Source: a virus
Lineage: Duplodnaviria; Caudoviricetes
Virus record (IMG/VR): IMGVR_UViG_3300025339_000007
Coordinates: 1 to 42,614 of that record
Length of the DNA stretch: 42,614 nucleotides
Reading direction: 5' to 3' (one strand)
This document shows, one piece after another, positions 6,130 to 40,234 of this stretch (its first letter is position 1; every line of letters starts with the position of its first letter). The notes under the pieces are model-generated. The model was not told the DNA's origin and ran no database searches. It saw nothing but the letters and a program-made list of their open reading frames with translations. Both the position numbers and the translations under genes were made by a program.

Positions 6130-7374
6130 TTAGGAATAGGAGCAACCGGCGAAGCTCAGATCATACGGGCAACGCTTGTGGATCACAGCGCGACCAAGAT
6201 ACGGAGCAATCGGGTGGGAGCCAGACTGGAAGATTGCCAGCCAGCGACCGATCTTGCCGAGGGGGTTGTTCACAGCATCACGGATGTTGAGCCAGAAGAA
6301 CTGCCCACTGTAGTAGTAGGGATAGTCATCAAACGGCGCACCGGGGATGTTGGGGCCAACCTGCTGAACGCTCTCCTCATACACATCGGGGTGGAAGATG
6401 TACGAGACCTCGTAGGGGGCGACATTGTAGGCGGGGTTAACCTCCCAAGTGTAGCCATTCGAGGTGGCAGACTGGATGTAGGGATAAACCTGCTGCCAGT
6501 TGTTGCCGCTGAACGTGAAGCGGGGAAGCTCCAGATCAATCATGTGGTAGAATCCAGCGAAGGAACGCTCGACACCAAGAGGAGCAATAAGCTCGCTAGG
6601 GGTGGCATAGCGGATGTCTTGACGCAGATCAGCGTTGTTACGGAGCAGATCGCGGCTCGTCTCAGGACTGGTGATCAGACCGAGGACGGGAACGCCATTC
6701 TCCTTACCAAGCGCATTGTGACCAGCACCATCGCGGATAAGCTGAACACGCAGAACATCAAGGAGATCCTGCGAGAGCTTGGCCGTAGGAGCGGGGATCG
6801 CATTGCCAGTCGCGCTGTTATACAAAGCGTTAGGCACGGTGGTTCCGTTGATGGCGGCAGACTGATAGACAGTCTGGCTCACATCTCCAGCGACCAGCTT
6901 GCCAGCGATACGGAGGAACTCCGAGCGGCGGCGGTTGTCAAGAACCGTCTTGGTCAGCTGGGTAAGCTGATGAACGGTCTTGCCGACCTGAGCCTCAATC
7001 TGGAACGCAGTCTTCAGATCGTCCAAGCAGATGCAAGGAGTCTGATAGCTCTGGGTCTGAAGCTGCCAAGTGCGGAGGGTCTGACCAAACGCAAGGTTGT
7101 TAGGAGTAGGATTGCAACCCGCAACGTTGTTGGGGCTACCAAGTCCCGACGAGGTGGAGACGTTCGACCAGGTGTTTTCGAAGTTACCCGAAAGAACGCG
7201 CTCAACCGTAACTTCCGTCAGGGTCGTGCCCATTCCGAGGGGGAACTTACCAACGCGAACGAGGCGACCCCAAGGGCCGTCAACAGAGTAACGCTCGTAA
7301 ATATCCACATTGAACCTGTTTGTCTCACGTTCAAAAATGTCATTTACCGTAGAGCATGAAATTGTGCTAGACAT
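6130..7374 (-). CDS. major capsid protein
   Basis: 414 aa with own promoter and terminator and strong codon bias; CICLDDL and L..DLLD..R..LIRDGA segments typical of this phage group's capsids. Confidence 0.8.
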   Translation of the reverse strand: MSSTISCSTVNDIFERETNRFNVDIYERYSVDGPWGRLVRVGKFPLGMGTTLTEVTVERVLSGNFENTWSNVSTSSGLGSPNNVAGCNPTPNNLAFGQTLRTWQLQTQSYQTPCICLDDLKTAFQIEAQVGKTVHQLTQLTKTVLDNRRRSEFLRIAGKLVAGDVSQTVYQSAAINGTTVPNALYNSATGNAIPAPTAKLSQDLLDVLRVQLIRDGAGHNALGKENGVPVLGLITSPETSRDLLRNNADLRQDIRYATPSELIAPLGVERSFAGFYHMIDLELPRFTFSGNNWQQVYPYIQSATSNGYTWEVNPAYNVAPYEVSYIFHPDVYEESVQQVGPNIPGAPFDDYPYYYSGQFFWLNIRDAVNNPLGKIGRWLAIFQSGSHPIAPYLGRAVIHKRCPYDLSFAGCSYS

Positions 7375-20472: not shown

Positions 20473-21159
20473 CTAGGCTAGGATCTTTTCTAGTTCCTCT
20501 TTTATTTCTAAAGACAACCCGCCCCACGACCAAGATTGCCTCACATACGTCTCCATCTCACGAGGATGGAGCCAGGTGAAGTGGCGATAGTAATTCCGAT
20601 ACGCCCAAGCCCCAAACGCATTAAACTCGCTAAAACGCCCCTTAGGCCGCTTCTTGAGCCATTGTGATAGATCCTCTTGATGGCAGTTAAACATGAAGTC
20701 CCTAAAGTCTCGAAGCGATTGCCGGGAGAATACAAACGGATGCCTCCTCATAAACTCAAACTCAGGCATAGATTTAATTGCCTCCTGAGTGATGGGATAC
20801 CAAGGACTCTGATCATGCGGCACATCCTCATACAACCAAATAGGGTTCCCCTCACGAAAAAAGCATTCGGGAGTCACATCCCTAATGAACACGCAATCAC
20901 TATCCATCACCAAGATATAGGGACTCCTGCAATACCAATCAGCATGGAGCTTGTCATTCTGTTGCTGGATATATCCATCGGGCCAAGCCGACACTAGATG
21001 AACCTCTGCGTCACAAGACGGCAATAAAGGATAATCATCGGCATTGATGCAGATATGAGTCTTACCAAATCCACGAGCATACTTCTTGATTGATCTCAAG
21101 CAATACTCAAGCCAATTAAAATCGCCGTGCCAGCTACGAATAAATATGTCTACTTGCAT
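20473..21159 (-). CDS. nucleotide-diphospho-sugar transferase-like protein (GT-A fold, DUF6492-like)
   Basis: GYIQQQNDKLHAD, ILVMDSDCVF (DxD), FSEFNAFG. Confidence 0.75.
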   Translation of the reverse strand: MQVDIFIRSWHGDFNWLEYCLRSIKKYARGFGKTHICINADDYPLLPSCDAEVHLVSAWPDGYIQQQNDKLHADWYCRSPYILVMDSDCVFIRDVTPECFFREGNPIWLYEDVPHDQSPWYPITQEAIKSMPEFEFMRRHPFVFSRQSLRDFRDFMFNCHQEDLSQWLKKRPKGRFSEFNAFGAWAYRNYYRHFTWLHPREMETYVRQSWSWGGLSLEIKEELEKILA

Positions 21160-21800
21160 GGTATACAGAGAAGATCGTATTGATCACCGCCCTCTTCTGG
21201 ATATGAAGTGAAATCATACCCCATAGCAATAACTGCATTTAATAAATCAACAGCACTACTACCATGCCTCTCAAGGGCAAACCTATTCACCTCAATCCAC
21301 ATTTTAGGTCTGAACTTATCAATAATATTGATTGCTCCCTCTAATGCCCTCAATTCATACCCCTCCACATCCAACTTGATGAAATCCAATCTATCCAGGT
21401 TCAATTCATCCAAGCACATGAGCTTTATAGCCTCTCCAGACGCTCCGATTGAACTAGCCCCTACATTCTCACAAGTCTCAAGGAAAGCCTCTCCTCCGTG
21501 GCTACAAAGCCCGTAATTGAAGGCTTGCACATGAGGGCAGTTGTGAATCAAGCATTGGAACGCCGCAGGATTAGGCTCAAAGGCAAACACCATCCCCAAA
21601 TCACCCACTTTGTCCTTATAGGCTTTAGTGTGGTCGCCTATAAAGGCTCCCCCATCCACCACCCAATCCCCCTCCTTGATATGCTCAAGGATGATCGGCA
21701 ATGAGTTCTGGTCATGATCAAGTCTCCCCTCCATCTCCACCCAACGGGAGATATGCGTGTCTCCCTCAATCACAGCTATTCCATTATCAAGAATCTTCAC
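21150..21800 (-). CDS. FkbM-family SAM-dependent methyltransferase
   Basis: VVDGGAFIGDHT, FAFEPNP, FIKLDVEGYEL..LEGA; GTG start. Confidence 0.92.
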   Translation of the reverse strand: MKILDNGIAVIEGDTHISRWVEMEGRLDHDQNSLPIILEHIKEGDWVVDGGAFIGDHTKAYKDKVGDLGMVFAFEPNPAAFQCLIHNCPHVQAFNYGLCSHGGEAFLETCENVGASSIGASGEAIKLMCLDELNLDRLDFIKLDVEGYELRALEGAINIIDKFRPKMWIEVNRFALERHGSSAVDLLNAVIAMGYDFTSYPEEGGDQYDLLCIPCK

Positions 21801-21803
21801 GGC

Positions 21804-21836
21804 TTGACACTACCTCATTCATGTCCTACCTTGCAA
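21804..21836. promoter_or_regulatory. overlapping divergent promoters
   Basis: Plus strand TTGACA-17-TACCTT; minus strand TTGCAA-18-TAGTGT ending 6 nt before the FkbM GTG. Confidence 0.65.
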
Positions 21837-21837
21837 G

Positions 21838-22135
21838 CAGATCACTCACAGGATGACTGATCTGGTGTAGTGGCAGGAGATCGTATGAGACGGGCCTCCC
21901 ACGAAGGTTAGAAGCTGGAGACCGCCGCCCAGCTTTAATAATGAGAGTCCCCGCGAAAAGACTCCTTCTATCCCCAACCCACCAAGTCAGGTAAGGCTCC
22001 ATAGGTCGTTCTAAAGCCGAGGGGGATCGGAAGCTCTATTTTAACATAGGGCTTCTTATGCCCTCCGCAGGAGCCTGTATCATAACACATCCAATTCATC
22101 AAGCGCGGCGGCCCCAAGCCAGCCGTGCGCAATTG
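21838..22135 (+). ncRNA. candidate structured non-coding RNA
   Basis: Starts about 6 nt after a -10 box; at least six stems; no ORF in the track. Confidence 0.5.
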
Positions 22136-22211
22136 ATATGTATAGAAAACAAGATTTTATCGACATATCATCTCAATCATGTACAAATCATAAACATATC
22201 TTTAGACTATA

Positions 22212-22439
22212 ATGAAAACTGATATGAAAACTAACTACCACGGAAATCAATCTTCCCTCCTATCTCAAGCAATCTACCTCATAGAACAAGGTCAAGATTG
22301 CGGAACCATAGCAGGTCAACTAGACCCAGAATACTCTCTGCGCCTCCGTATTCACACGCAGATCCTCCCAGATGAGATAAGAACGCTATCCCTTTATGGG
22401 AGAGCGCATCCTCCTGCGTATCAGAAGAAGAGAAAATAA
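22212..22439 (+). CDS. possible small hypothetical protein
   Basis: 75-aa ORF in an otherwise non-coding region. Confidence 0.35.
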   Translation: MKTDMKTNYHGNQSSLLSQAIYLIEQGQDCGTIAGQLDPEYSLRLRIHTQILPDEIRTLSLYGRAHPPAYQKKRK

Positions 22440-22930
22440 AGTTTCTATCCTTTTAGGAAGGACAGATCTCGGTGAATGTGTCCCTCGGAGAAGGACGGGA
22501 ACCACCCTACCATTCAGGAGTAGTATAAGTCGTTAACTATCAATAAGTAGTAACGCATGACGCATGCCGATCTTGTCAGAAAAAGTGGGTAGTTTTTCTT
22601 TCAGGAATGTTGCCGATCATTCACATCCAATAAAAGTCTACGAGCGCAAACAATAATAACCCCGATAGGGAACATTTTGCCAGTTAAGACACCAGATTAT
22701 ACCCGATAGGATTTGTCACAACCTTTAGGTTGCAGAACTCTGTTCTGTCACTTGGGGATTTTTAGGAAAATTTGTATAGAGGTTTTCTCGCGGAAACGAC
22801 GGCAAAACTTCTCGCGTCGAGGGGGGTGCCCGTCACCCTACCCACAGAAAAAAAGAATGCTTTGAATTACTAGGCTACCGGATACTAACAGAACTATTTA
22901 TGTTCTGTATTATCTGATGCTATGGCAATC

Positions 22931-23422
22931 CTACAGAGATGGAGATACCTTCACTTGCCCTGCTAACATACTTGCGTCCATGTTTAGGAGGTTAATCGAC
23001 ACGGATGCTGATGAAGTTTCGCCTCCTAAGTTGTAGATAACCCTTCCAGCATCGGTTAGAGACTTGATCTCACGAGACCCAGCTATGATTGCACCAGCGT
23101 CCATCCTCCCTATCTCTTCAGCGGCGCGAGATAGGCCAGATGAGATACCGCCGATGAATTTGTCCCTTTGTTCCTCGATAGTTGCTTTAACAGCTTGAAC
23201 AGGATCGAGTGTGACAATCTCAGGCCGGAGCTCTTGCAATTCCCTCTTCCCCTCTTCAATCTTCCTGACAGCATTGCCTGGAGTTTTCCATTGCTTCCGT
23301 TTGGATCGTTGAATGACAGAGTTAATAGGAACGCCGAAAGCCTTTGCCGTATCGGTGAATGACATTCCCGTTGTCATGTAGTGAAGCTCTATAGCTTGCC
23401 AGTCATATTTACTTTTGGCCAT
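22931..23422 (-). CDS. terminase small subunit-like HTH protein
   Basis: KYDWQAIELHY..G.S....AKAFGV....V..RSKRKQW N-terminal HTH typical of TerS. Confidence 0.65.
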   Translation of the reverse strand: MAKSKYDWQAIELHYMTTGMSFTDTAKAFGVPINSVIQRSKRKQWKTPGNAVRKIEEGKRELQELRPEIVTLDPVQAVKATIEEQRDKFIGGISSGLSRAAEEIGRMDAGAIIAGSREIKSLTDAGRVIYNLGGETSSASVSINLLNMDASMLAGQVKVSPSL

Positions 23423-25861: not shown

Positions 25862-26454
25862 CGGGCCTCCTTGAGCTTCTGGATCTCGTCGCGAAGGTAG
25901 CGGATGGCGTAGGCTGTTTTTGCGGCTATTGCTGCCACAGAAGAAGGTAAGCTTTCGGAGTTCGCGATTTCCTCTAGGTCTTCGATGTCTCCCTCCAGCG
26001 GCAACGGGCGGCGGGTGCGAACCTTGGCAAAGTTTGACGCTGGGTAGCCTATCCACCCAGTTATTTTAGTCCACTTGCCAGTATAATACTCATCCCCCTC
26101 TTGAATCACCTCGTCAGGGCCAAGCTCTCGCCACTCGGGTTGAACTGTTAAGGATTCCTTAATAGTTGGTTCCTCTGGCGCGGGGGCGAGTCGGGCATTT
26201 GATTTTATTTCCTCAAGCTCATCAGCCAACTCACCATGCCAAACGGTGACCGCTTGTTTCTGATTGCGCCAAAACTCATCGGCAATCTCAATCGCTCGGT
26301 TCAGAAGCTCACGGAGCCTTGCGACCTCGGCTTCTAGTTTGTGGTTCATTTCTCCGACTGGTTCACAAGCGTAGCAGGAGCCTTGGAATCCTAGTTTAAA
26401 GCGATCAAGTTCCTCACGGAGCCTTGCGACCTCGGTGGTGGTGTCGGGGTTCAT
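25858..26454 (-). CDS. mosaic hypothetical protein with repeated EVARLRE segments
   Basis: 198 aa; CYACE motif and WRELGPDEVIQEGDEY module. Confidence 0.7.
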   Translation of the reverse strand: MNPDTTTEVARLREELDRFKLGFQGSCYACEPVGEMNHKLEAEVARLRELLNRAIEIADEFWRNQKQAVTVWHGELADELEEIKSNARLAPAPEEPTIKESLTVQPEWRELGPDEVIQEGDEYYTGKWTKITGWIGYPASNFAKVRTRRPLPLEGDIEDLEEIANSESLPSSVAAIAAKTAYAIRYLRDEIQKLKEAR

Positions 26455-27075
26455 TTTATTTTTCCTTTTGGTTCTTCATCCTTCTCAATAGTGACCTTGA
26501 ATCCAACATTTCCTGCAACATGGAAGGCAATTACGCCTTCTGGATTCATGTATCCTTTAGCGGCTTGACTGCCCTCAATTTTAAGCCTTTCGATCTGTCG
26601 GTTTGCCTCGCTGAAATCTCCAATTCCCAAAATTGGAACTAACCCACAACACGCTGGTAGAATGTCTTGATACTTTTCAATGCGCGGATCTGCGGTTGGG
26701 ATACGTTTAGGATTTTGTCCGGCAGCGCACCATCGAATTACATTAAAGAGAGAGAATCGTTTTTCGCCCTGTGTGTAACCATACCCGCGCTGTATTCCGC
26801 TTCCCCACCACTCTCCGAAATGAGATCCAACTCCAAGTTCCATGAGAGAATCCTTATATGCATATGCCCATTTAGCAAATCCGTGGTTGTCATTTTCAGG
26901 CGTGATCCATCGCGTCCTAGAACCAACTAGAAATTGTCCGTCTTCGGTTATTTTGATTTGGGCATTAGTCCCATCAATTTTTTCTGTGACGATAACCTGA
27001 CGATTAAGTCTAGCTATTTTTGGGAAACCGCTAAATAGCGGAGAATTGATATTGTTCATGTCGGGGTTCATTTTA
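26442..27075. repeat. 17-nt direct repeats TGTCGGGGTTCATTTTA (26442-26458 and 27059-27075) flanking the RNA ligase gene
   Basis: Exact match read from the sequence. Confidence 0.85.
26451..27071 (-). CDS. RNA ligase (Rnl2-like nucleotidyltransferase domain)
   Basis: FPKI.RL, TEKIDGTN (motif I), GSR, FGEWWG.GIQ, FSLFNV, PEGVI, FK. Confidence 0.85.
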   Translation of the reverse strand: MNPDMNNINSPLFSGFPKIARLNRQVIVTEKIDGTNAQIKITEDGQFLVGSRTRWITPENDNHGFAKWAYAYKDSLMELGVGSHFGEWWGSGIQRGYGYTQGEKRFSLFNVIRWCAAGQNPKRIPTADPRIEKYQDILPACCGLVPILGIGDFSEANRQIERLKIEGSQAAKGYMNPEGVIAFHVAGNVGFKVTIEKDEEPKGKIK

Positions 27076-28765: not shown

Positions 28766-30054
28766 TGGTGTGTTGTTACTTCCCGTTCTTCAAACCGCAG
28801 GTATTGCGGCTGGAAGGTTAGCGGGAAAGATGTTCTACTACAATTCCTAGCGAGTCGGATGTCAAGCCAATATCCGATCTCATCGGGATCTTGTTTCTTC
28901 TTGCTATCCTCCTCTGCCTCTTGGTAGCGGATGACCAAAAACATATCGCAGTCATGCTGGATAGCATCAGATTCACGGGCGGTTCCGTTGCGGTTAAGCT
29001 GGCATAGAGCAATGATGGTGATTCCAAGTTCCTTGGCTACCAACTTGAGGCATCGGCTGACTTCTGCCACCTGGCGCTCACGGGAGTCCTTTGCGTTGGA
29101 TGGCATAGCAAGCTGGATATAATCAAAAACAATCATCTTTACGCCATGCGTTGCCACCATCCTACGAGCGGCAGCCATGATTTGAAGTGGGTTGATAGAG
29201 CTTTCATCTCTGATCCAGATCGGTAGCTTGCCAACTTGCCCCACGCCAAAAGCAATCTTACCCATCTCTTCTTTAGTGGGGTTTTTGGATAGCACGGATA
29301 TGTCCACGCCAGTTAGGGAAGCTACAAGCCTATCCACCATTTCCCCGCTACTCATCTCAAGGCTGAACACTCCCACGGGATTACCGGCATCAGCGGTTCG
29401 TTGGGCGATGTTGAGAGCAAGAGCGGTTTTCCCCCCTTTTGTGGGCGCACCGATCACAATCAATTGCCCTGGCCTCATGCCTCCCGTGTGTTCATCAAGA
29501 GCAGGGAAGCCGTAGGTAAGCCCCATGAGCTTGCCCTTGTTCTTCACCATCTCCTCATATTCGTTGAGGCGGCGTGTTGTAGCCTCGCCAATAGACTCAA
29601 TTTTTGTCCCTGACTCCGCTTCTGAAGCAATGGCGACAAGAGCTTTCTGCACAGTCTCGGAGAGTTCCCCGTTCACCACAGGGTTACGCGCTGAATCAAT
29701 GATGCGCTCTGCACCAGCAATGGCAAGTCGCGCCGTGTGGTAGTGGCGAATGATGTTGAAATACTCCTCATGGTTGTAGCTTGTCGCCACAGCAGAGTAT
29801 ATCGCCGCCACTTCTGACGCACCACCGCAATCTGCCATGCAGTTGTTGGTCTCCAACCACTCGCTGATGGTCACGAGATCCACGCTCTTGCCCTCTTTCC
29901 AGAGGGCTAAAAGCCCCTTAAACAGCGTTTTATGGGCTGGATAAGAGAACAGGGCGGCCTTGAGGTGATCGGCGTGTATATCAAGGATGGAGGGATTTTG
30001 CAGGGCAGAGGAAAGGAAAGCCCTTTCTGCGTCTAGATTGGCAGGAAGGCTCAT
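28762..30054 (-). CDS. dnaB: DnaB-like replicative helicase
   Basis: P.NLDAE.A.L N-terminus, Walker A GAPTKGGKT, FSLEMS, FDYIQL, LCQLNR, RESDAIQHDCD. Confidence 0.93.
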   Translation of the reverse strand: MSLPANLDAERAFLSSALQNPSILDIHADHLKAALFSYPAHKTLFKGLLALWKEGKSVDLVTISEWLETNNCMADCGGASEVAAIYSAVATSYNHEEYFNIIRHYHTARLAIAGAERIIDSARNPVVNGELSETVQKALVAIASEAESGTKIESIGEATTRRLNEYEEMVKNKGKLMGLTYGFPALDEHTGGMRPGQLIVIGAPTKGGKTALALNIAQRTADAGNPVGVFSLEMSSGEMVDRLVASLTGVDISVLSKNPTKEEMGKIAFGVGQVGKLPIWIRDESSINPLQIMAAARRMVATHGVKMIVFDYIQLAMPSNAKDSRERQVAEVSRCLKLVAKELGITIIALCQLNRNGTARESDAIQHDCDMFLVIRYQEAEEDSKKKQDPDEIGYWLDIRLARNCSRTSFPLTFQPQYLRFEEREVTTHQ

Positions 30055-31926: not shown

Positions 31927-32508
31927 TCAAACTTTTTTTGAATAAATCTTGAAGCCCCTTCTAGCGGCCTCCGCAAGAAACTCTGCCTCGCTGTATTGAT
32001 CTATAGATACATACTTCCTCCGATTTGCCACTTGATCTCGTTGTGTAGCCCATCGGACATTGCTCGGCTCGTAATCTCCATTCACATCTATGCGGTCTAT
32101 GGAATGATTGGGGCTTGGCTTTGGGCCAACGTCTGCAAGGAAATTCAAGAATCCATTTTTTCCTTTCCATCGTTCGCAAACCTTGATGCTGCGATCAGCG
32201 TAGTCTTTCTTGCAAGGATGTTTTATATTTGGTGAGCAACGATTGAGCATCCCCCTCCAATGAATGTATTCTCTGCTCTTGCTCATGCCATGAGTTTTCC
32301 CAGAGCGGTTTTCTTTCCACAAGCAGTTGCAACTTTTTTGTCCACGCTTTAATGCGTATCCCATGATTTCTTTTTCTACTCCGCAATCACATCGGCATAG
32401 CCAGTAATATTTTCCTTTGTGATCTTTCCTGCCGCGCTTCAAAACAAGCAAGCGTCCAAATCTGTGTCCTTCAAGTGATTCTCTATCTCGGTGAATTGTG
32501 TCAGTCAT
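31927..32508 (-). CDS. free-standing HNH homing endonuclease
   Basis: G.RFGRL.V, W.CRCDCG, THGMS, W..M..RC, IKVCERW, SIDRIDVNGDYEPSNVRWAT. Confidence 0.88.
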   Translation of the reverse strand: MTDTIHRDRESLEGHRFGRLLVLKRGRKDHKGKYYWLCRCDCGVEKEIMGYALKRGQKSCNCLWKENRSGKTHGMSKSREYIHWRGMLNRCSPNIKHPCKKDYADRSIKVCERWKGKNGFLNFLADVGPKPSPNHSIDRIDVNGDYEPSNVRWATQRDQVANRRKYVSIDQYSEAEFLAEAARRGFKIYSKKV

Positions 32509-34189
32509 ATGAGGACTCTAGCGTATTTTGGCTAACAAAGCTATCCCAATCTTCTTCCATTTGCTGATTTGTTTCGCTAGTCCCTTGTATGCCGTAGTTC
32601 CTGACAAACACCTCCACAAGAAGAGCCAAGGCATCTGCTCTATCTGGACTGTTGCCGCTTGTTCTTGCCTTCATTTCTTTCTTACTCTCAACGCAAATCT
32701 TTTCCTTCTTCAGCGAGTATAGGCGAGTAGAAAGCTCTCGCGCCGTGTCCTCGTCTAGTCCACGAAGTTTGTTTCCAACAATCATTTGGCGCACATTGAA
32801 CCAAAGTTGAGTGACCCTGTTGTAATAAAGCTCTTTGCCTGTCTTCTCATCTTCTACGCTCACTTTGTCTTCGGTTGCGTATCCTCCAAAGGTCACGCGA
32901 TGGAATCCATTCTTCCAACGCTGGCTTATGATGTCCGCAAGTCCTGCTCCTCCTCCAGTAGAGTCAAGAGCAAAACATTCTGGCTCTATGCGCTTTTGAT
33001 TGAGTTTTTCAATCACCCTATCCGCAATCTGAAAGAATGCAGGATAATCCACCCTTTCTTCAATGATGATCTTGTGAGTCTCTGTAATCATTAGAACAGT
33101 ATCACCATCAACAGTCTTTCCAATCATGCCAAATCGCAGAACACAATCATCGCCATCTGTTGTGAATGCAGGGTCAAGAGCCGCTACTTGCATTAGCCCT
33201 CCACCCGCCCATATTGCCTTGTCTGATGCCTTTCCTTCTTGGATGGTAGCCGCATCAACAACTGTGTTTCTAACGCCGCTAGGAGGCCAGAACCCCCTCA
33301 CATAGCTCCACCATTGAAGAGAGTTCTCTCCATAGTTGGCTCGGCAAGCATCTATGTCATCTTGAGAGAATAACTTTGGAAAGATGATTTTACCGCGCTT
33401 GACATTCGGGGACTTTAGCCCATCAAAGTGAATACAAATACCAGTCTTAGTTTCCCATGATTCATAGTCTGCCGTGATGGTTGACCATCCTCCCTTTGGT
33501 TCACAGAACCTTCCATGTGCATCATATTGACTGCTGGCGTTTCCGATTGCCACAAAGCGATAGAAATCTGCACCAATAGAAAGATTGAATCTTGCATCGA
33601 AAACAGCAGGGGGACTCTGCGGGGCTTCGTCAACGCAGATAATAGTCCGTGATGGGTGGAAGCCCTGCAGTTTACCAACCGCTTGTTCTACAGCCCCGCT
33701 ATCAACTGCTAGACCGATAATTGAATGTCGGTCATCCCCTTTCTGAAATTGAATCTTGGTTTGAGAATCAACTATGTTCAACCCAAACAAAGGATGGACT
33801 GGGCGCATGAAGTTCATCACTTCACTCCACACGCGACCCCTCAAGCTGGGAACTGTCGTTGATGTGAGCGCAACACGGGTTGCCATAGGGCAAGCCAAAT
33901 ACTCAATCGTGGAGATTAACGAGAATGTGAATGTCTTACCAGCGGCTCCGCACCCAGTCGTCCCGATCTCTTTATAGTTTGTCCAAGCCCAGAGACAAAG
34001 CTCTGACCAGTCATTCCATCCATCCATGACCCAAGGCCATAGCATATGGATAACGTGCTTGATATGCTGACCCCGACTCAAGCCGCTGAAGCGACTTGGA
34101 TCGGGATCTTTCACCATCAGCAACTCAACCTCTAGTTGGGTAGCTTTAGGGAAAGCCGATAAATCTAAACCATAGGTTTGTAATTTCAT
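32501..34189 (-). CDS. terL: terminase large subunit
   Basis: Walker A GCGAAGKT, Walker B ICVDEA, IGNA, nuclease ALDPAF..GDD and SPDRADAL. Confidence 0.9.
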   Translation of the reverse strand: MKLQTYGLDLSAFPKATQLEVELLMVKDPDPSRFSGLSRGQHIKHVIHMLWPWVMDGWNDWSELCLWAWTNYKEIGTTGCGAAGKTFTFSLISTIEYLACPMATRVALTSTTVPSLRGRVWSEVMNFMRPVHPLFGLNIVDSQTKIQFQKGDDRHSIIGLAVDSGAVEQAVGKLQGFHPSRTIICVDEAPQSPPAVFDARFNLSIGADFYRFVAIGNASSQYDAHGRFCEPKGGWSTITADYESWETKTGICIHFDGLKSPNVKRGKIIFPKLFSQDDIDACRANYGENSLQWWSYVRGFWPPSGVRNTVVDAATIQEGKASDKAIWAGGGLMQVAALDPAFTTDGDDCVLRFGMIGKTVDGDTVLMITETHKIIIEERVDYPAFFQIADRVIEKLNQKRIEPECFALDSTGGGAGLADIISQRWKNGFHRVTFGGYATEDKVSVEDEKTGKELYYNRVTQLWFNVRQMIVGNKLRGLDEDTARELSTRLYSLKKEKICVESKKEMKARTSGNSPDRADALALLVEVFVRNYGIQGTSETNQQMEEDWDSFVSQNTLESSYD

Positions 34190-37454: not shown

Positions 37455-38012
37455 TTACTGGGGGATTATGCCCCTTCTGTTAAGCTCGTCAAGCAATTCT
37501 TTTGTGGAAAAGTTTTCAATTGATTTGTATTTCCTGCGATTCTTCATTTGCTCTGATCTAGATGCCCAACGAACATTCCCAGGCTCATAATTCCCATTAT
37601 TGTCAATTCTATCCAATGAATGCTGTGGAGATGGTTTTTCCCCAACGCATTGTAAAAACTTTTGAAATCCTTCTCTTCCTTTCCATTCATCTGCAACTTT
37701 AATGCCGCGATCAAAATAATCCGCATGACAATGTGCAGTTGGAGTACAGCGATATTTCATTCCCTGCCAAGCGTTGAACTCTGGAGTTCCAGTAAGCCCG
37801 TGATTTTTTGAGCGAGAATTATATCTGCATCCACAGCTTTTTGATTTTCGGGCGATTAAACAATCAGATGTGGTTAGATGATCTTTACCACAATCACATT
37901 TGCACTTGTAAACAATTCTGCTGTTTTTCCTTTCATTTGTTGACTCAATAACAACGAGTCTTCCATACCTATTGCCAACAATATTTTTGGCATTGGGATG
38001 AATTGAAATCAT
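37455..38012 (-). CDS. free-standing HNH homing endonuclease (paralogue of 31927..32508)
   Basis: G.RYGRLVV, CKCDCG, KSCGC, HGL, W.GMK.RC, SLDRIDNNGNYEPGNVRWAS. Confidence 0.88.
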   Translation of the reverse strand: MISIHPNAKNIVGNRYGRLVVIESTNERKNSRIVYKCKCDCGKDHLTTSDCLIARKSKSCGCRYNSRSKNHGLTGTPEFNAWQGMKYRCTPTAHCHADYFDRGIKVADEWKGREGFQKFLQCVGEKPSPQHSLDRIDNNGNYEPGNVRWASRSEQMKNRRKYKSIENFSTKELLDELNRRGIIPQ

Positions 38013-40234
38013 GGAGCTATAGAACTATATTTGGATGCAACTTTTACCTTATCGATCATCAGACGCTGTGCCGTCTTGCGATCTTGGAGCATCATCTGAT
38101 GTTGAGCCTTGGCCTGTTTGATCTGAGCGTCATTCTGGAATTTAGCCCTATCCAGCATGATCTTGTTCTGAGCAACTGCCATCTTGGGATCTTGCGCTCC
38201 CTGCTGTCCCTGCTGGGCCATCTCCTGCTCGTTGATCTGCTCTGCCAGATTGTTCAACTGGTCAGCAATCTTCATCAACTCGCTAGTCTGCTCATTGAGA
38301 TTCTCAAACTGCTCCTTGCGGGTCGGGTCTTCCTCCAGATACTTGAGGTGGGTGAGGATATGCGGGATGGCGGCTTGCATGGTAACTGCCGCCTTTCTAG
38401 GATCTTCTTTCTGACCCTGCACAGCCTCCACAATGCTTCCTGCATACTGGAGGTGGACAGTGAGATGCACATAATGGTTCTGATCGGGATCAATGAGAAC
38501 CTGACCACCAACGGCAAACGCATTGTTCTCAAGGGAGGCGATTGAAAGATCACTACCCTCTGGCTTGGTTTCTTCGGGGATACCAAAGGTTTCAACGCCA
38601 GTCTGACCAGCAATAGCGGCGATATTCGCATTGATAACCCGCTTGCGGTTGCTCTCTGGAAGCTGTGGCAGATATTGGCCAATAAGCTCCATCGCTTGCA
38701 TACGGGCGGCAGAGCTTCCCTGTCCAATGCTACGAGTGGCCTTCACGGAATCAATGTCCAGAAGCGCGGCGGCTGGAACACCCCTACGGATACAAGCATC
38801 TTGGAATGCAAGAGCCTCAGCACCCCCATGATCCTCTTCAACAATGTTGGGATTAGAGGCGCGGCGATAAACTTCACGATAATGAGTGTCGAGGGCTTGG
38901 AGGTAGATTTCAGCGCGGGTGTTGGTGAGACGGCTTTTCTCGCCGATTTCCGCTTCCACTTCCTTGTTGCTCTTCTTGCGGCCACCAGCAACCGATGGCA
39001 TAAAGCTACCAATATCATCGCTTTCTTGGCCTTGGAACATCTGTGCAACTTGCATTGCTCCAGCGAGCTTGGAGGTAGTTCCGACCTGCACAAAGTTCAT
39101 TCCGGGAGGAAGAATGCGATAAGGCCCAATCTGAACGGTCTTGAGAGACTCGGCATCCTTAGCAGACTGAGGCTGGATCATTACCGCACTATCCACAATT
39201 ACGCCTTCAAGTAGCGCATTGTTAATCCGATCCATTGCTTGAGCATACTTATAAACCTTCTGCCCAAGCCCTCTCACGCCATGATAGTATCCATTACCAA
39301 CCCCATTCAGAAAGATGGTAAATGCATTAGAAAAGCTCTTATAGCAAGACTCACGTGCGCAAAGGAACTCAGTAGAGTTTAGTCGGTCAAAAACATAATG
39401 AGAAATGCGACCATCGTATTCCTTCACATAAAGGTGGGCTACCTTGATAATCTTGCTCTTGGCATACGAGTAATAGAGAGCGTTGTTCTTAAACTCCTTC
39501 TGATACCACTCCCACGGGCGGCGTTGATCCTGCTCGTCAATACGAGCTTGCATGATCGCTTCCTTGCATTCCTCGACATCCCACCCTCCACGAGATGCAG
39601 CTTCCTCATTCTCAATGTATCGGTAGAGTTCCTCCGTATACATATCGTCCAGAACATAACAAAACTCCCAGTTCTGCCAATCAACTGTGGAGCCTTTGGG
39701 GACGATCAACTGCCAAGGTTCAACAGCCTTAGCCTTGAAATCCATAGCATCCCCCCAGAACATACAAGCCTGACCATGAATGACCAACTGCTTGTGGGCC
39801 ACCTGATGCTGGAGGATGAAGTTTGGGTTGGTCTTATCTAGGAGGCGATGGAACTCCTCTGTGATGATGCGGCTCCATTCCTCGCGTTTACCCATGTCCT
39901 TGCCATACTTGGTCTTAACCGTGGCATAGCTGCCAACAGAAGTAAGGATGTCAAAGTAGGGAATGACTGCCGCCTCAACCTTGGCTTCAGCGTGACCCCA
40001 GTTTACATTGATGCGATCTCCCTGTCCCATCTCCTTGAGTTGGGTATCGTTAAAGGGGGCATTCCCATCAATCTGACCTTGAATTTGAGCGCGACGATAA
40101 GATGCAATCTGATCATCATCAATCAGCGTAAACAGCATTGCACGGGCAGAACCCGCATCCTTAACCCTCGTTTTAGGAACTTCATTCTCATCGAGGTCTA
40201 GGAGGCCGTATGGCTGATTGGTATTATTTGTCAT
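38009..40234 (-). CDS. portal protein
   Basis: 741 aa; DGNAPF...NVNWG, NGYYHGVRGLG, Gln-rich C-terminal coiled-coil (barrel-like). Confidence 0.75.
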   Translation of the reverse strand: MTNNTNQPYGLLDLDENEVPKTRVKDAGSARAMLFTLIDDDQIASYRRAQIQGQIDGNAPFNDTQLKEMGQGDRINVNWGHAEAKVEAAVIPYFDILTSVGSYATVKTKYGKDMGKREEWSRIITEEFHRLLDKTNPNFILQHQVAHKQLVIHGQACMFWGDAMDFKAKAVEPWQLIVPKGSTVDWQNWEFCYVLDDMYTEELYRYIENEEAASRGGWDVEECKEAIMQARIDEQDQRRPWEWYQKEFKNNALYYSYAKSKIIKVAHLYVKEYDGRISHYVFDRLNSTEFLCARESCYKSFSNAFTIFLNGVGNGYYHGVRGLGQKVYKYAQAMDRINNALLEGVIVDSAVMIQPQSAKDAESLKTVQIGPYRILPPGMNFVQVGTTSKLAGAMQVAQMFQGQESDDIGSFMPSVAGGRKKSNKEVEAEIGEKSRLTNTRAEIYLQALDTHYREVYRRASNPNIVEEDHGGAEALAFQDACIRRGVPAAALLDIDSVKATRSIGQGSSAARMQAMELIGQYLPQLPESNRKRVINANIAAIAGQTGVETFGIPEETKPEGSDLSIASLENNAFAVGGQVLIDPDQNHYVHLTVHLQYAGSIVEAVQGQKEDPRKAAVTMQAAIPHILTHLKYLEEDPTRKEQFENLNEQTSELMKIADQLNNLAEQINEQEMAQQGQQGAQDPKMAVAQNKIMLDRAKFQNDAQIKQAKAQHQMMLQDRKTAQRLMIDKVKVASKYSSIAP

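Follow-up and report, generated by a model that had tools for sequence, protein, structure and literature searches.

A probable new family of structured phage RNAs with a tRNA-accepting arm, and the variable slot that it occupies

The locus and its neighbouring genes

The window—the whole stretch of DNA that was analysed, 42,614 nucleotides long—is a 42.6-kb phage record that is 96% complete according to CheckV. Pfam and PHROGs label a DnaB helicase, an SSB, an exonuclease, two HNH nucleases, an RNA ligase, TerS, and an FkbM methyltransferase, and no primase, polymerase, or initiator is recognized by them in the window. As the window is cut at its ends and lacks genes that its relatives have, the absence of an initiator is uncertain; two genes present in 22–23 relatives—by eye an ERF-type annealing protein and a lysozyme—are missing from it. 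Cultured phages give no DNA match to the window and no match to the presumed capsid protein, and TerL is matched at about 24% at best. In GTDB genomes, neither a relative of the 237-aa core protein nor a prophage was found. This core protein carries in-frame insertions of about 77–79 residues in two records (L039 and L041), in two different places. The features that matter here are the following.

21150-21800, minus strand: FkbM methyltransferase (Pfam/PHROGs)
21804..21832, plus strand: putative sigma-70-type promoter, with a -35 box TTGACA (21804-21809), a 17-nt spacer, and a -10 box TACCTT (21827-21832)
21838..22062, plus strand: family A non-coding RNA, about 225 nt, both ends placed from conservation
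22063-22073 and 22103-22128, plus strand: a CTCC-GCA-GGAG hairpin and a GCGCGGC stem, both outside family A and both present with and without it
22212..22439, plus strand: gene of a core 71-75-aa helical protein with a basic tail, in 24/24 near-complete records
22746..22862, no strand assigned: conserved DNA element beside terS, consisting of A/T tracts, then a G run and TGCCCGTC
22931-23422, minus strand: TerS (Pfam/PHROGs)
26451-27071: RNA ligase gene (PF09414)
32501-34189: TerL
6130-7374 and 38009-40234: capsid and portal, both labels read from size and position alone

A first-pass annotation, made from the letters of the window, had described an undescribed promoter-driven phage RNA of about 300 nt and many stems at this place. 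The promoter is borne out by the homologues presented below, whose -10 box at the 17-nt spacer carries A at position 2 in 37/37 cases, T at position 1 in 29, and T at position 6 in 27. Hereby, only the -10 count is independent evidence, since TTGAC served to pick the full-length rows. The general promoter scan of the window omits this site, whose -10 box has 3/6 matches and falls under the rule of the scan; it does report a second, weak promoter at 22143-22171, upstream of the 75-aa gene. On the 3′ side, at least nine T within the 15 nt past the closing helix are found in 11/33 loci. The conserved -10 box, these T-rich ends, and the full tRNAs that some members carry within an arm of the RNA together suggest a stand-alone transcript.

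The RNA had also been described as facing opposite to its flanking genes, which is half wrong, as the core 75-aa gene downstream of it shares its strand. This arrangement holds in all 33 loci with sufficient flank (46 unique loci, 13 of them with too short a flank), and the gene is likely to be cotranscribed with the RNA. The spacer between the two is unconserved, ranges from 15 to 471 nt, and bears terminator-like sites in 8/33 loci. The structure model of the 75-aa protein is helical (pLDDT 86), and no clear match was found in Pfam, PDB sequences, or folds, the best being helical bundles at a Z of 5.5. Ahead of this gene (22150-22210), the short words GACATATC and TCATGT recur in several records; by eye, these might be operator sites.

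The conserved DNA element at 22746-22862 is found in 29/31 records—the two misses being records that are 67% and 51% complete—and occurs with or without family A. Its position makes it a likely packaging or origin site. The distance from family A is about 680 nt to this element and about 870 nt to terS.

Homologues, fold, and cargo of family A

The single sequence of the window is weak evidence for a structured RNA, and the reality of family A is decided by its homologues. Searches with neighbouring proteins and with RNA patterns yielded 224 loci, in 117 of which a profile detects family A; these amount to 45 non-redundant sequences, all from related phages. For the alignment, two contig-edge fragments were left out and 38 sequences below 97% identity were kept, with a mean identity of 63% and a minimum of 43%. 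The sample thus represents one phage group, and the covariation counts given below include relatedness. A pattern scan of metagenomes (55 of 64 parts covered) contributed 120 loci: 45 are family A members, and the remaining 75 show no match to the covariance model, which describes the 103-position 3′ domain of the family. None of the 17 GTDB pattern loci belongs to it, the best reaching 21.5 bits without P5 and P8, and it was not found in L332 and L333, more distant phages that have the 75-aa gene. The RNA patterns miss variants such as L022, and distant members may be absent from the set.

Conservation begins at the -35 box and breaks off after CUUAUGC, at about 22062; 38 positions are invariant across the 38 aligned sequences. 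The predicted fold consists of a hairpin at the 5′ end, a helix that closes the body, seven other helices, and one long-range pseudoknot, and compensatory changes in the 38 homologues support it. Its elements, all on the plus strand, are given below; a cell is one pair in one sequence.

21838..21863: P0, 5′ hairpin with a CARGA-type loop; two-sided changes in 8/8 pairs, pairing in 79% of cells
21864..21868: 5′ strand GGUGU of the closing helix P1, paired with AUGCC at 22058-22062; 97% of cells paired
21870..21902: P2, long hairpin; five pairs at E<0.05, tip accepts insertions
21904-21907: invariant AAGG, within the strand 21903..21912
21908-21912: 5′ strand of PK1, paired with 22010-22014 in the P7 loop
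21912..21935: P3 hairpin; four pairs at E<0.05
21924-21926: GCC of the P3 loop, which may pair with GGU at 22004-22006 as PK2, a candidate second pseudoknot
21945..21964: P4, variable stem; the region measures 24-95 nt among homologues
21970..22027: three-way junction of P6 (21970-75/22022-27), P5 (21977-79/21990-92), and P7 (21995-98/22015-18)
22030..22055: P8 hairpin; 95.5% of cells paired, 3/7 pairs change on both sides

In this 59-pair model, 92.4% of 2198 cells are paired, versus 75.2% in shuffles and 33.5-46.4% in slid controls, and two-sided changes occur in 44/59 pairs. RNAalifold run on the alignment gives 39 pairs, 26 of them with two-sided changes. A covariation check of the kind that had been proposed for the locus, run as a G-test under a tree-based null, returns 14 pairs at E<0.05. 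These all fall in P0, P2, P3, P4, P5, and P6, and beyond the model, no pair reaches E<1; for this test, one gap was moved in the short class, while L031 could not be moved. Energies of single sequences say less. The fold z-score of 21835-22140 is -2.9 on the plus and -2.7 on the minus strand, and that of the conserved 225 nt is -0.8; in the window's own sequence, the nested part of the covariation fold (-37.0 kcal/mol) is less stable than the predicted minimum (-71.1 kcal/mol). The modelled pairs hold 176 G-U versus 10 A-C cells, which favours the plus strand, yet the pairs had been chosen on this strand and the count leans that way.

Individual elements behave differently. P0 varies in sequence and keeps its pairing (21847-21855, E=0.01). 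Its loop had been called CsrA-site-like, and it does read ACAGGA in the window; this reading is not kept in the family, where CAAGA occurs in 14/38 and CAGGA in 13/38 homologues, and GGA in 18/38. Changes in P1 are mostly one-sided exchanges between G-C and G-U, with a single two-sided pair, and P2 contains a C21874/C21898 mismatch that is C-C in 38/38 sequences. P5, P6, and P7 are paired in 98.7-100% of cells and contribute three pairs at E<0.05, and P8 is lengthened in L031, L093, and L094. For PK1, 188/190 cells are paired over its five positions, compared with 42-79 of 152 in slid controls, and each of the variants UUAGA, UCAAG, AAAGA, UAAGA, AUAGA, and UAUCA has a matched partner; taken one by one, its pairs are not significant (best E about 9). 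In PK2, two C-G pairs are invariant and a third pair is retained in 35/38 homologues, with almost no covariation. A second pseudoknot at this place is possible, and other partners for the CC fit as well.

All motifs named by the first-pass annotation lie where it had placed them: TTGACA at 21804 and TACCTT at 21827 (17-nt spacer), CAGATCA/TGATCTG at 21838/21858, AAGCTGG/CCAGCTT at 21912/21929, GAGTC/GACTC at 21945/21960, AGGCTCC/GGAGCCT at 21994/22070, GAAGCTCTAT/ATAGGGCTTC at 22030/22046, and GCGCGGC/GCCGTGC at 22103/22122. Its first three stems and the GAAGCTCTAT/ATAGGGCTTC hairpin find support in the covariation or pairing of the homologues. On the contrary, the proposed long-range AGGCTCC/GGAGCCT pair has a full partner in only 3/37 homologues and its bases belong to other covarying helices, and the final GCGCGGC stem lies outside family A, occurring in 4/16 records with the RNA and 5/12 without. 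The structured RNA hence stands, with a conserved part of 225 nt rather than about 300 nt and with a different fold. A decayed coding sequence, the reading that the same annotation had named as its possible undoing, was rejected as well: the lengths of the homologues spread over all three frames (11, 15, and 12 of 38), and their longest open stretch ranges from 34 to 102 codons. We are highly confident that family A is a real structured RNA.

The most variable part is P4. ARAGORN finds a whole tRNA inside P4 in 3/45 homologues—tRNA-Met(CAU) in L044 and L046, tRNA-Trp(CCA) in L043—of which one is also above the Rfam tRNA cut-off. By eye, the P4 stem runs on from the acceptor stem of the inserted tRNAs. 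Two further members (L098, L182) bear tRNA-like inserts without a D arm (RNAfold and by eye), many tRNA-less members show a T-arm-like hairpin or loop by eye, and in L029, P4 is reduced to a plain hairpin. Given these inserts and the 24-95 nt range of the region, the P4 tip appears to be peripheral, and the RNA would tolerate cutting there. Other structured inserts, 35-75 nt long, are called as tRNAs by neither ARAGORN nor Rfam; they lie in P4 of L006/L036 and L054 and at the P2 tip of L054 and L147. Free-standing tRNAs also occur near the slot in other records.

An exchangeable slot

The position of family A was surveyed in 31 records, i.e., the window and 30 larger records from the protein searches. 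Family A occupies this slot in 17 of them, element B or its variant B2 in five, element B3 in two, and element C in four, and none of these is found in three records: one of the three ends within the slot, and the other two are fragments without the conserved DNA element. Family A never occurs together with B, B3, or C. A single locus suffices for this mutual exclusion, and it does not imply a function shared by the slot elements. The 3′-domain covariance model does not detect family A in any of the 14 non-carriers (positive controls 2/2), seven of which are at least 90% complete.

The replacing elements each follow a TTGAC box, have no Rfam match, and are candidates for structured RNAs. They are located as follows.

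Element B, about 250-290 nt: L319, L321, L323, L326-L328 (about 1405-1680 minus, or 1340-1615 plus); G019-G021, G028
Element B2, variant of B: L320/G022
Element B3, about 265 nt: L014, L016 (G017, G018), ahead of the 75-aa gene; seen in just two near-identical copies, with a long closing helix predicted
Element C, a motif of about 57 nt, GUGAAUGCGUACCAC ... CAAAAC: L011, L012, L017, L030, L032, L313 (G016, G023, G024, G027)

Element B has a 5′ hairpin and a predicted closing GACA/UGUC helix, and its six similar sequences provide only 3 two-sided changes in 72 pairs. By eye, both it and family A have UUAAU after a hairpin whose loop reads (A/C)GCC; profile searches for homology between the two give no cross-hits. 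Element C sits 50-60 nt past the TTGAC box in most records and resembles small ribozymes in size.

On protein trees, the label of the records requires 12 changes for the neighbouring 237-aa protein (10.2 when shuffled), 7 for TerL (8.9), and 10 for the 75-aa protein (9.4). G003 and G022, near-identical in their flanking proteins on both sides, differ as to the RNA. In a comparison of 15 carriers with nine non-carriers, family A is tracked by none of 201 ORF clusters. One cluster, present in 10/15 versus 1/9 (p=0.013, uncorrected for the 201 tests), was considered as a protein partner and rejected, as it was judged by eye to be a frame antisense to a core gene. The RNA ligase (PF09414) was rejected likewise: it is a sporadic accessory gene with strong matches in only 2/30 relatives, one of which lacks the RNA. 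From these observations, we infer that the slot is a variable accessory locus under host selection.

A divergent small ORF accompanies B and B3 (0/15 family A carriers, 5/9 non-carriers). On the divergent side of the slot in L018, L019, L024, and L027, some records have an ORF that looks HNH-like by eye, possibly a mobility cassette.

Known RNA families and possible roles

At gathering cut-offs, Rfam has no hit in the whole window, and at E<=10, the region 21600-23000 gives four chance hits and nothing else; on ten homologue loci, the only matches are the tRNA inserts. The Rfam check thus agrees with the earlier view of an RNA that has not been described, as does the covariation. In the literature searched, no description of family A was found. 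PMC10690425—an IMG/VR screen with candidates of 29-151 nt—may list a fragment in its supplements, and a word search of part of these files and of the PMC10085705 supplement gave no match to family A. For tmRNA, neither ARAGORN nor Rfam makes a call. The c-di-AMP riboswitch model (RF00379) matches 0/5 carrier records, with 2/14 controls above cut-off. Likenesses to 16S rRNA, RNase P, and c-di-AMP and cobalamin riboswitches were taken as leads only, and those tested failed.

Closer by description are the large ornate RNAs of phages and bacteria. GOLLD (RF02032) is likewise phage-borne, highly structured, and near tRNAs, with a tRNA sometimes in its variable region (PMC12286853; 10.1101/2024.12.08.627333), and it binds ribosomes in pull-downs (PMC12286853). 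The tRNA within a variable region is a common habit rather than homology: GOLLD is often longer than 800 nt, has 27 stems, and places its tRNAs in an unstructured linker, whereas family A has 225 nt and holds its tRNA on a paired stem, and a model of the conserved 3′ domain of GOLLD gives no match at E<=10 in G000. ROOL (RF03087) is a phage or prophage RNA near tRNAs that has pseudoknots and no known protein partner (PMC5737381); it averages 581 nt with six junctions, versus 225 nt here. Its model matches 0/5 carrier records, but the controls of this search gave no match either. The raiA RNA (RF03072) resembles family A in its size of about 200-250 nt, its 5′/3′ closing helix, its two pseudoknots—PK2 being a candidate here—and its variable peripheral stems, and it is an independent, abundant transcript that often lies ahead of genes (PMC10861870, PMC12968392). 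It differs in its P1, which is long and has three parts (P1a-c), in a PK1 of 6 bp that involves the P3b loop, and in the conserved linker UUAGA(C/A)GUAA (PMC12968392). In family A, P1 measures 5 bp, PK1 connects the P7 loop with a junction strand and varies in sequence, and UUAGA is the strand of a covarying helix, unlike the conserved linker of raiA. Also, raiA is reported from Bacillota and Actinomycetota genomes, family A from phages. The raiA model gives no hit at the family A locus, one 8.8-bit hit at 30022-30049, and a partial hit in G031. The manA RNA (RF01745) is similarly found in phages in front of genes and is shorter than 200 nt (10.64898/2026.07.01.735769); here, the likeness is limited to these descriptive traits, and there is no Rfam match. 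Taken together, family A is well supported as a new, uncatalogued family of a known kind, the ornate phage RNAs that have tRNAs as passengers; its architecture is new, and its swappable slot is unusual.

An accessory RNA that lacks a phage partner, is swapped among close relatives, and can carry tRNAs is best read as one that acts in trans on the host, and we lean slightly toward a trans-acting and RNA-only function. A role as decoy or inhibitor of a host RNA-handling factor is put forward tentatively from this context. Host RNA polymerase would start near 21838, likely early in infection, and produce a compact and stable RNA that folds to a closed, pseudoknotted body with variable arms, whose two ends might be shielded by P0 and P1; the 75-aa gene would be supplied by read-through or by the weak promoter at 22143-22171. 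Where P4 carries a tRNA, host RNase P and 3′ nucleases might excise it and leave a two-piece RNA joined by the P4 stem—by analogy to GOLLD, these tRNAs might simply be passengers on a strong promoter. The RNA itself would then act without a phage protein partner, possibly on a defence ribonuclease or a translation component of the host. The tRNA-Tyr of phage T5, which counters a retron (10.1101/2023.03.15.532788), is by analogy likewise a phage RNA product against host defence; it is a plain tRNA, whereas most family A members are tRNA-less and their conserved part is a larger scaffold.

Three other readings would explain some of the architecture. In a riboswitch-like leader, the fold would sense a metabolite, a nucleotide signal, or a protein and control the 75-aa gene, with relatives swapping sensors. 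The constant position of this gene downstream on the same strand (33/33 loci) would be expected of a cis-acting leader, further records have different RNA-like elements ahead of this ORF, and the short closing helix with G-U pairs, the 38 invariant positions around two junctions, and the pseudoknotted core would fit an aptamer equally. Yet the unconserved spacer with its few terminator-like sites offers no conserved expression platform, whole tRNAs lie within the fold, and no Rfam riboswitch matches, which makes such a leader unlikely. The gathering of invariant unpaired bases in the pseudoknotted core might instead point to a ribozyme that processes its own transcript or its tRNAs; P4 would then be a tRNA-like substrate attached to it, or a mimic, as the continuation of the acceptor stem and the T-arm-like hairpins of many tRNA-less members (by eye) would allow. 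The models of RNase P RNA type A (RF00010; 8/14 controls above cut-off) and of the group I intron (RF00028; controls positive) are nevertheless blank at E<=10 in all five carrier records, group I introns lie inside a host gene while family A is intergenic with its own putative promoter, P4 is only a plain hairpin in L029, and GAAG/CUUC—a possible pseudoknot of the RNase P P4 kind—covaries as the local hairpin P8; a ribozyme is a little less likely than the leader. A multimer or cage made of RNA alone, as in GOLLD, ROOL, or manA, with pseudoknot pairs formed between copies, would be compatible with the decoy reading. A covarying pair of ROOL that was taken as tertiary turned out to be intermolecular (PMC12286853) and manA RNAs below 200 nt form cages (10.64898/2026.07.01.735769), but raiA, which is comparable in size and complexity, is a monomer (PMC12286853, PMC12968392). 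The pairing data of family A fit intra- and intermolecular pairs alike, and we regard a cage as a rather small chance.

The roles that the first-pass annotation had offered fare worse. A replication primer or R-loop RNA would suit a window without a recognized primase, polymerase, or initiator, in which transcription heads toward 22746-22862. It is very improbable, as no conserved DNA follows the RNA and a core gene intervenes, the predicted fold has the 3′ end paired in P1, tRNAs can interrupt the RNA, the cumulative GC skew does not turn at family A, and the 22746-22862 element is independent of the RNA. Proximity to terS and to the likely packaging site speaks for a packaging RNA. The pRNA of phi29 is essential to its motor, and RNAs of this type are conserved across their group; family A is missing from non-carriers, including relatives with near-identical flanking proteins such as G003 versus G022, and TerL and TerS are conventional, so this role is hardly plausible. 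Csr sponges of the CsrB/RsmZ type have many GGA hairpin loops. Family A has the one candidate loop in P0, with ACAGGA in this genome and CAGGA no more frequent than CAAGA among homologues, and no other conserved GGA loop, which makes a CsrA/RsmA sponge scarcely credible.

Few bacterial or phage non-coding RNAs have such size and complexity, and GOLLD, ROOL, and raiA are still without known function (PMC12286853, PMC12968392). Family A combines good covariation with a small size, within reach of probing, cryo-EM, and expression in laboratory strains, and its variants with and without tRNA, as well as near-identical phages that differ in their slot RNA, provide ready-made comparisons. This makes the question of what ornate phage RNAs do, and why tRNAs accompany them, more directly testable. 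A bolder picture takes the slot—from terS to the late operon—as a swappable cassette of unrelated, uncatalogued structured RNAs before one core gene; family A would be either an anti-defence factor made of RNA alone or a new class of large ribozymes, able to carry and release tRNAs. We consider this combination doubtful. The slot in any case points to three or four more uncatalogued RNA candidates. Ahead of element C, a promoter-led structured stretch of about 300 nt follows a tRNA-Gln in G027 (L313:3900-4450), and the slot of L011 holds a promoter-led, short, terminated hairpin RNA.
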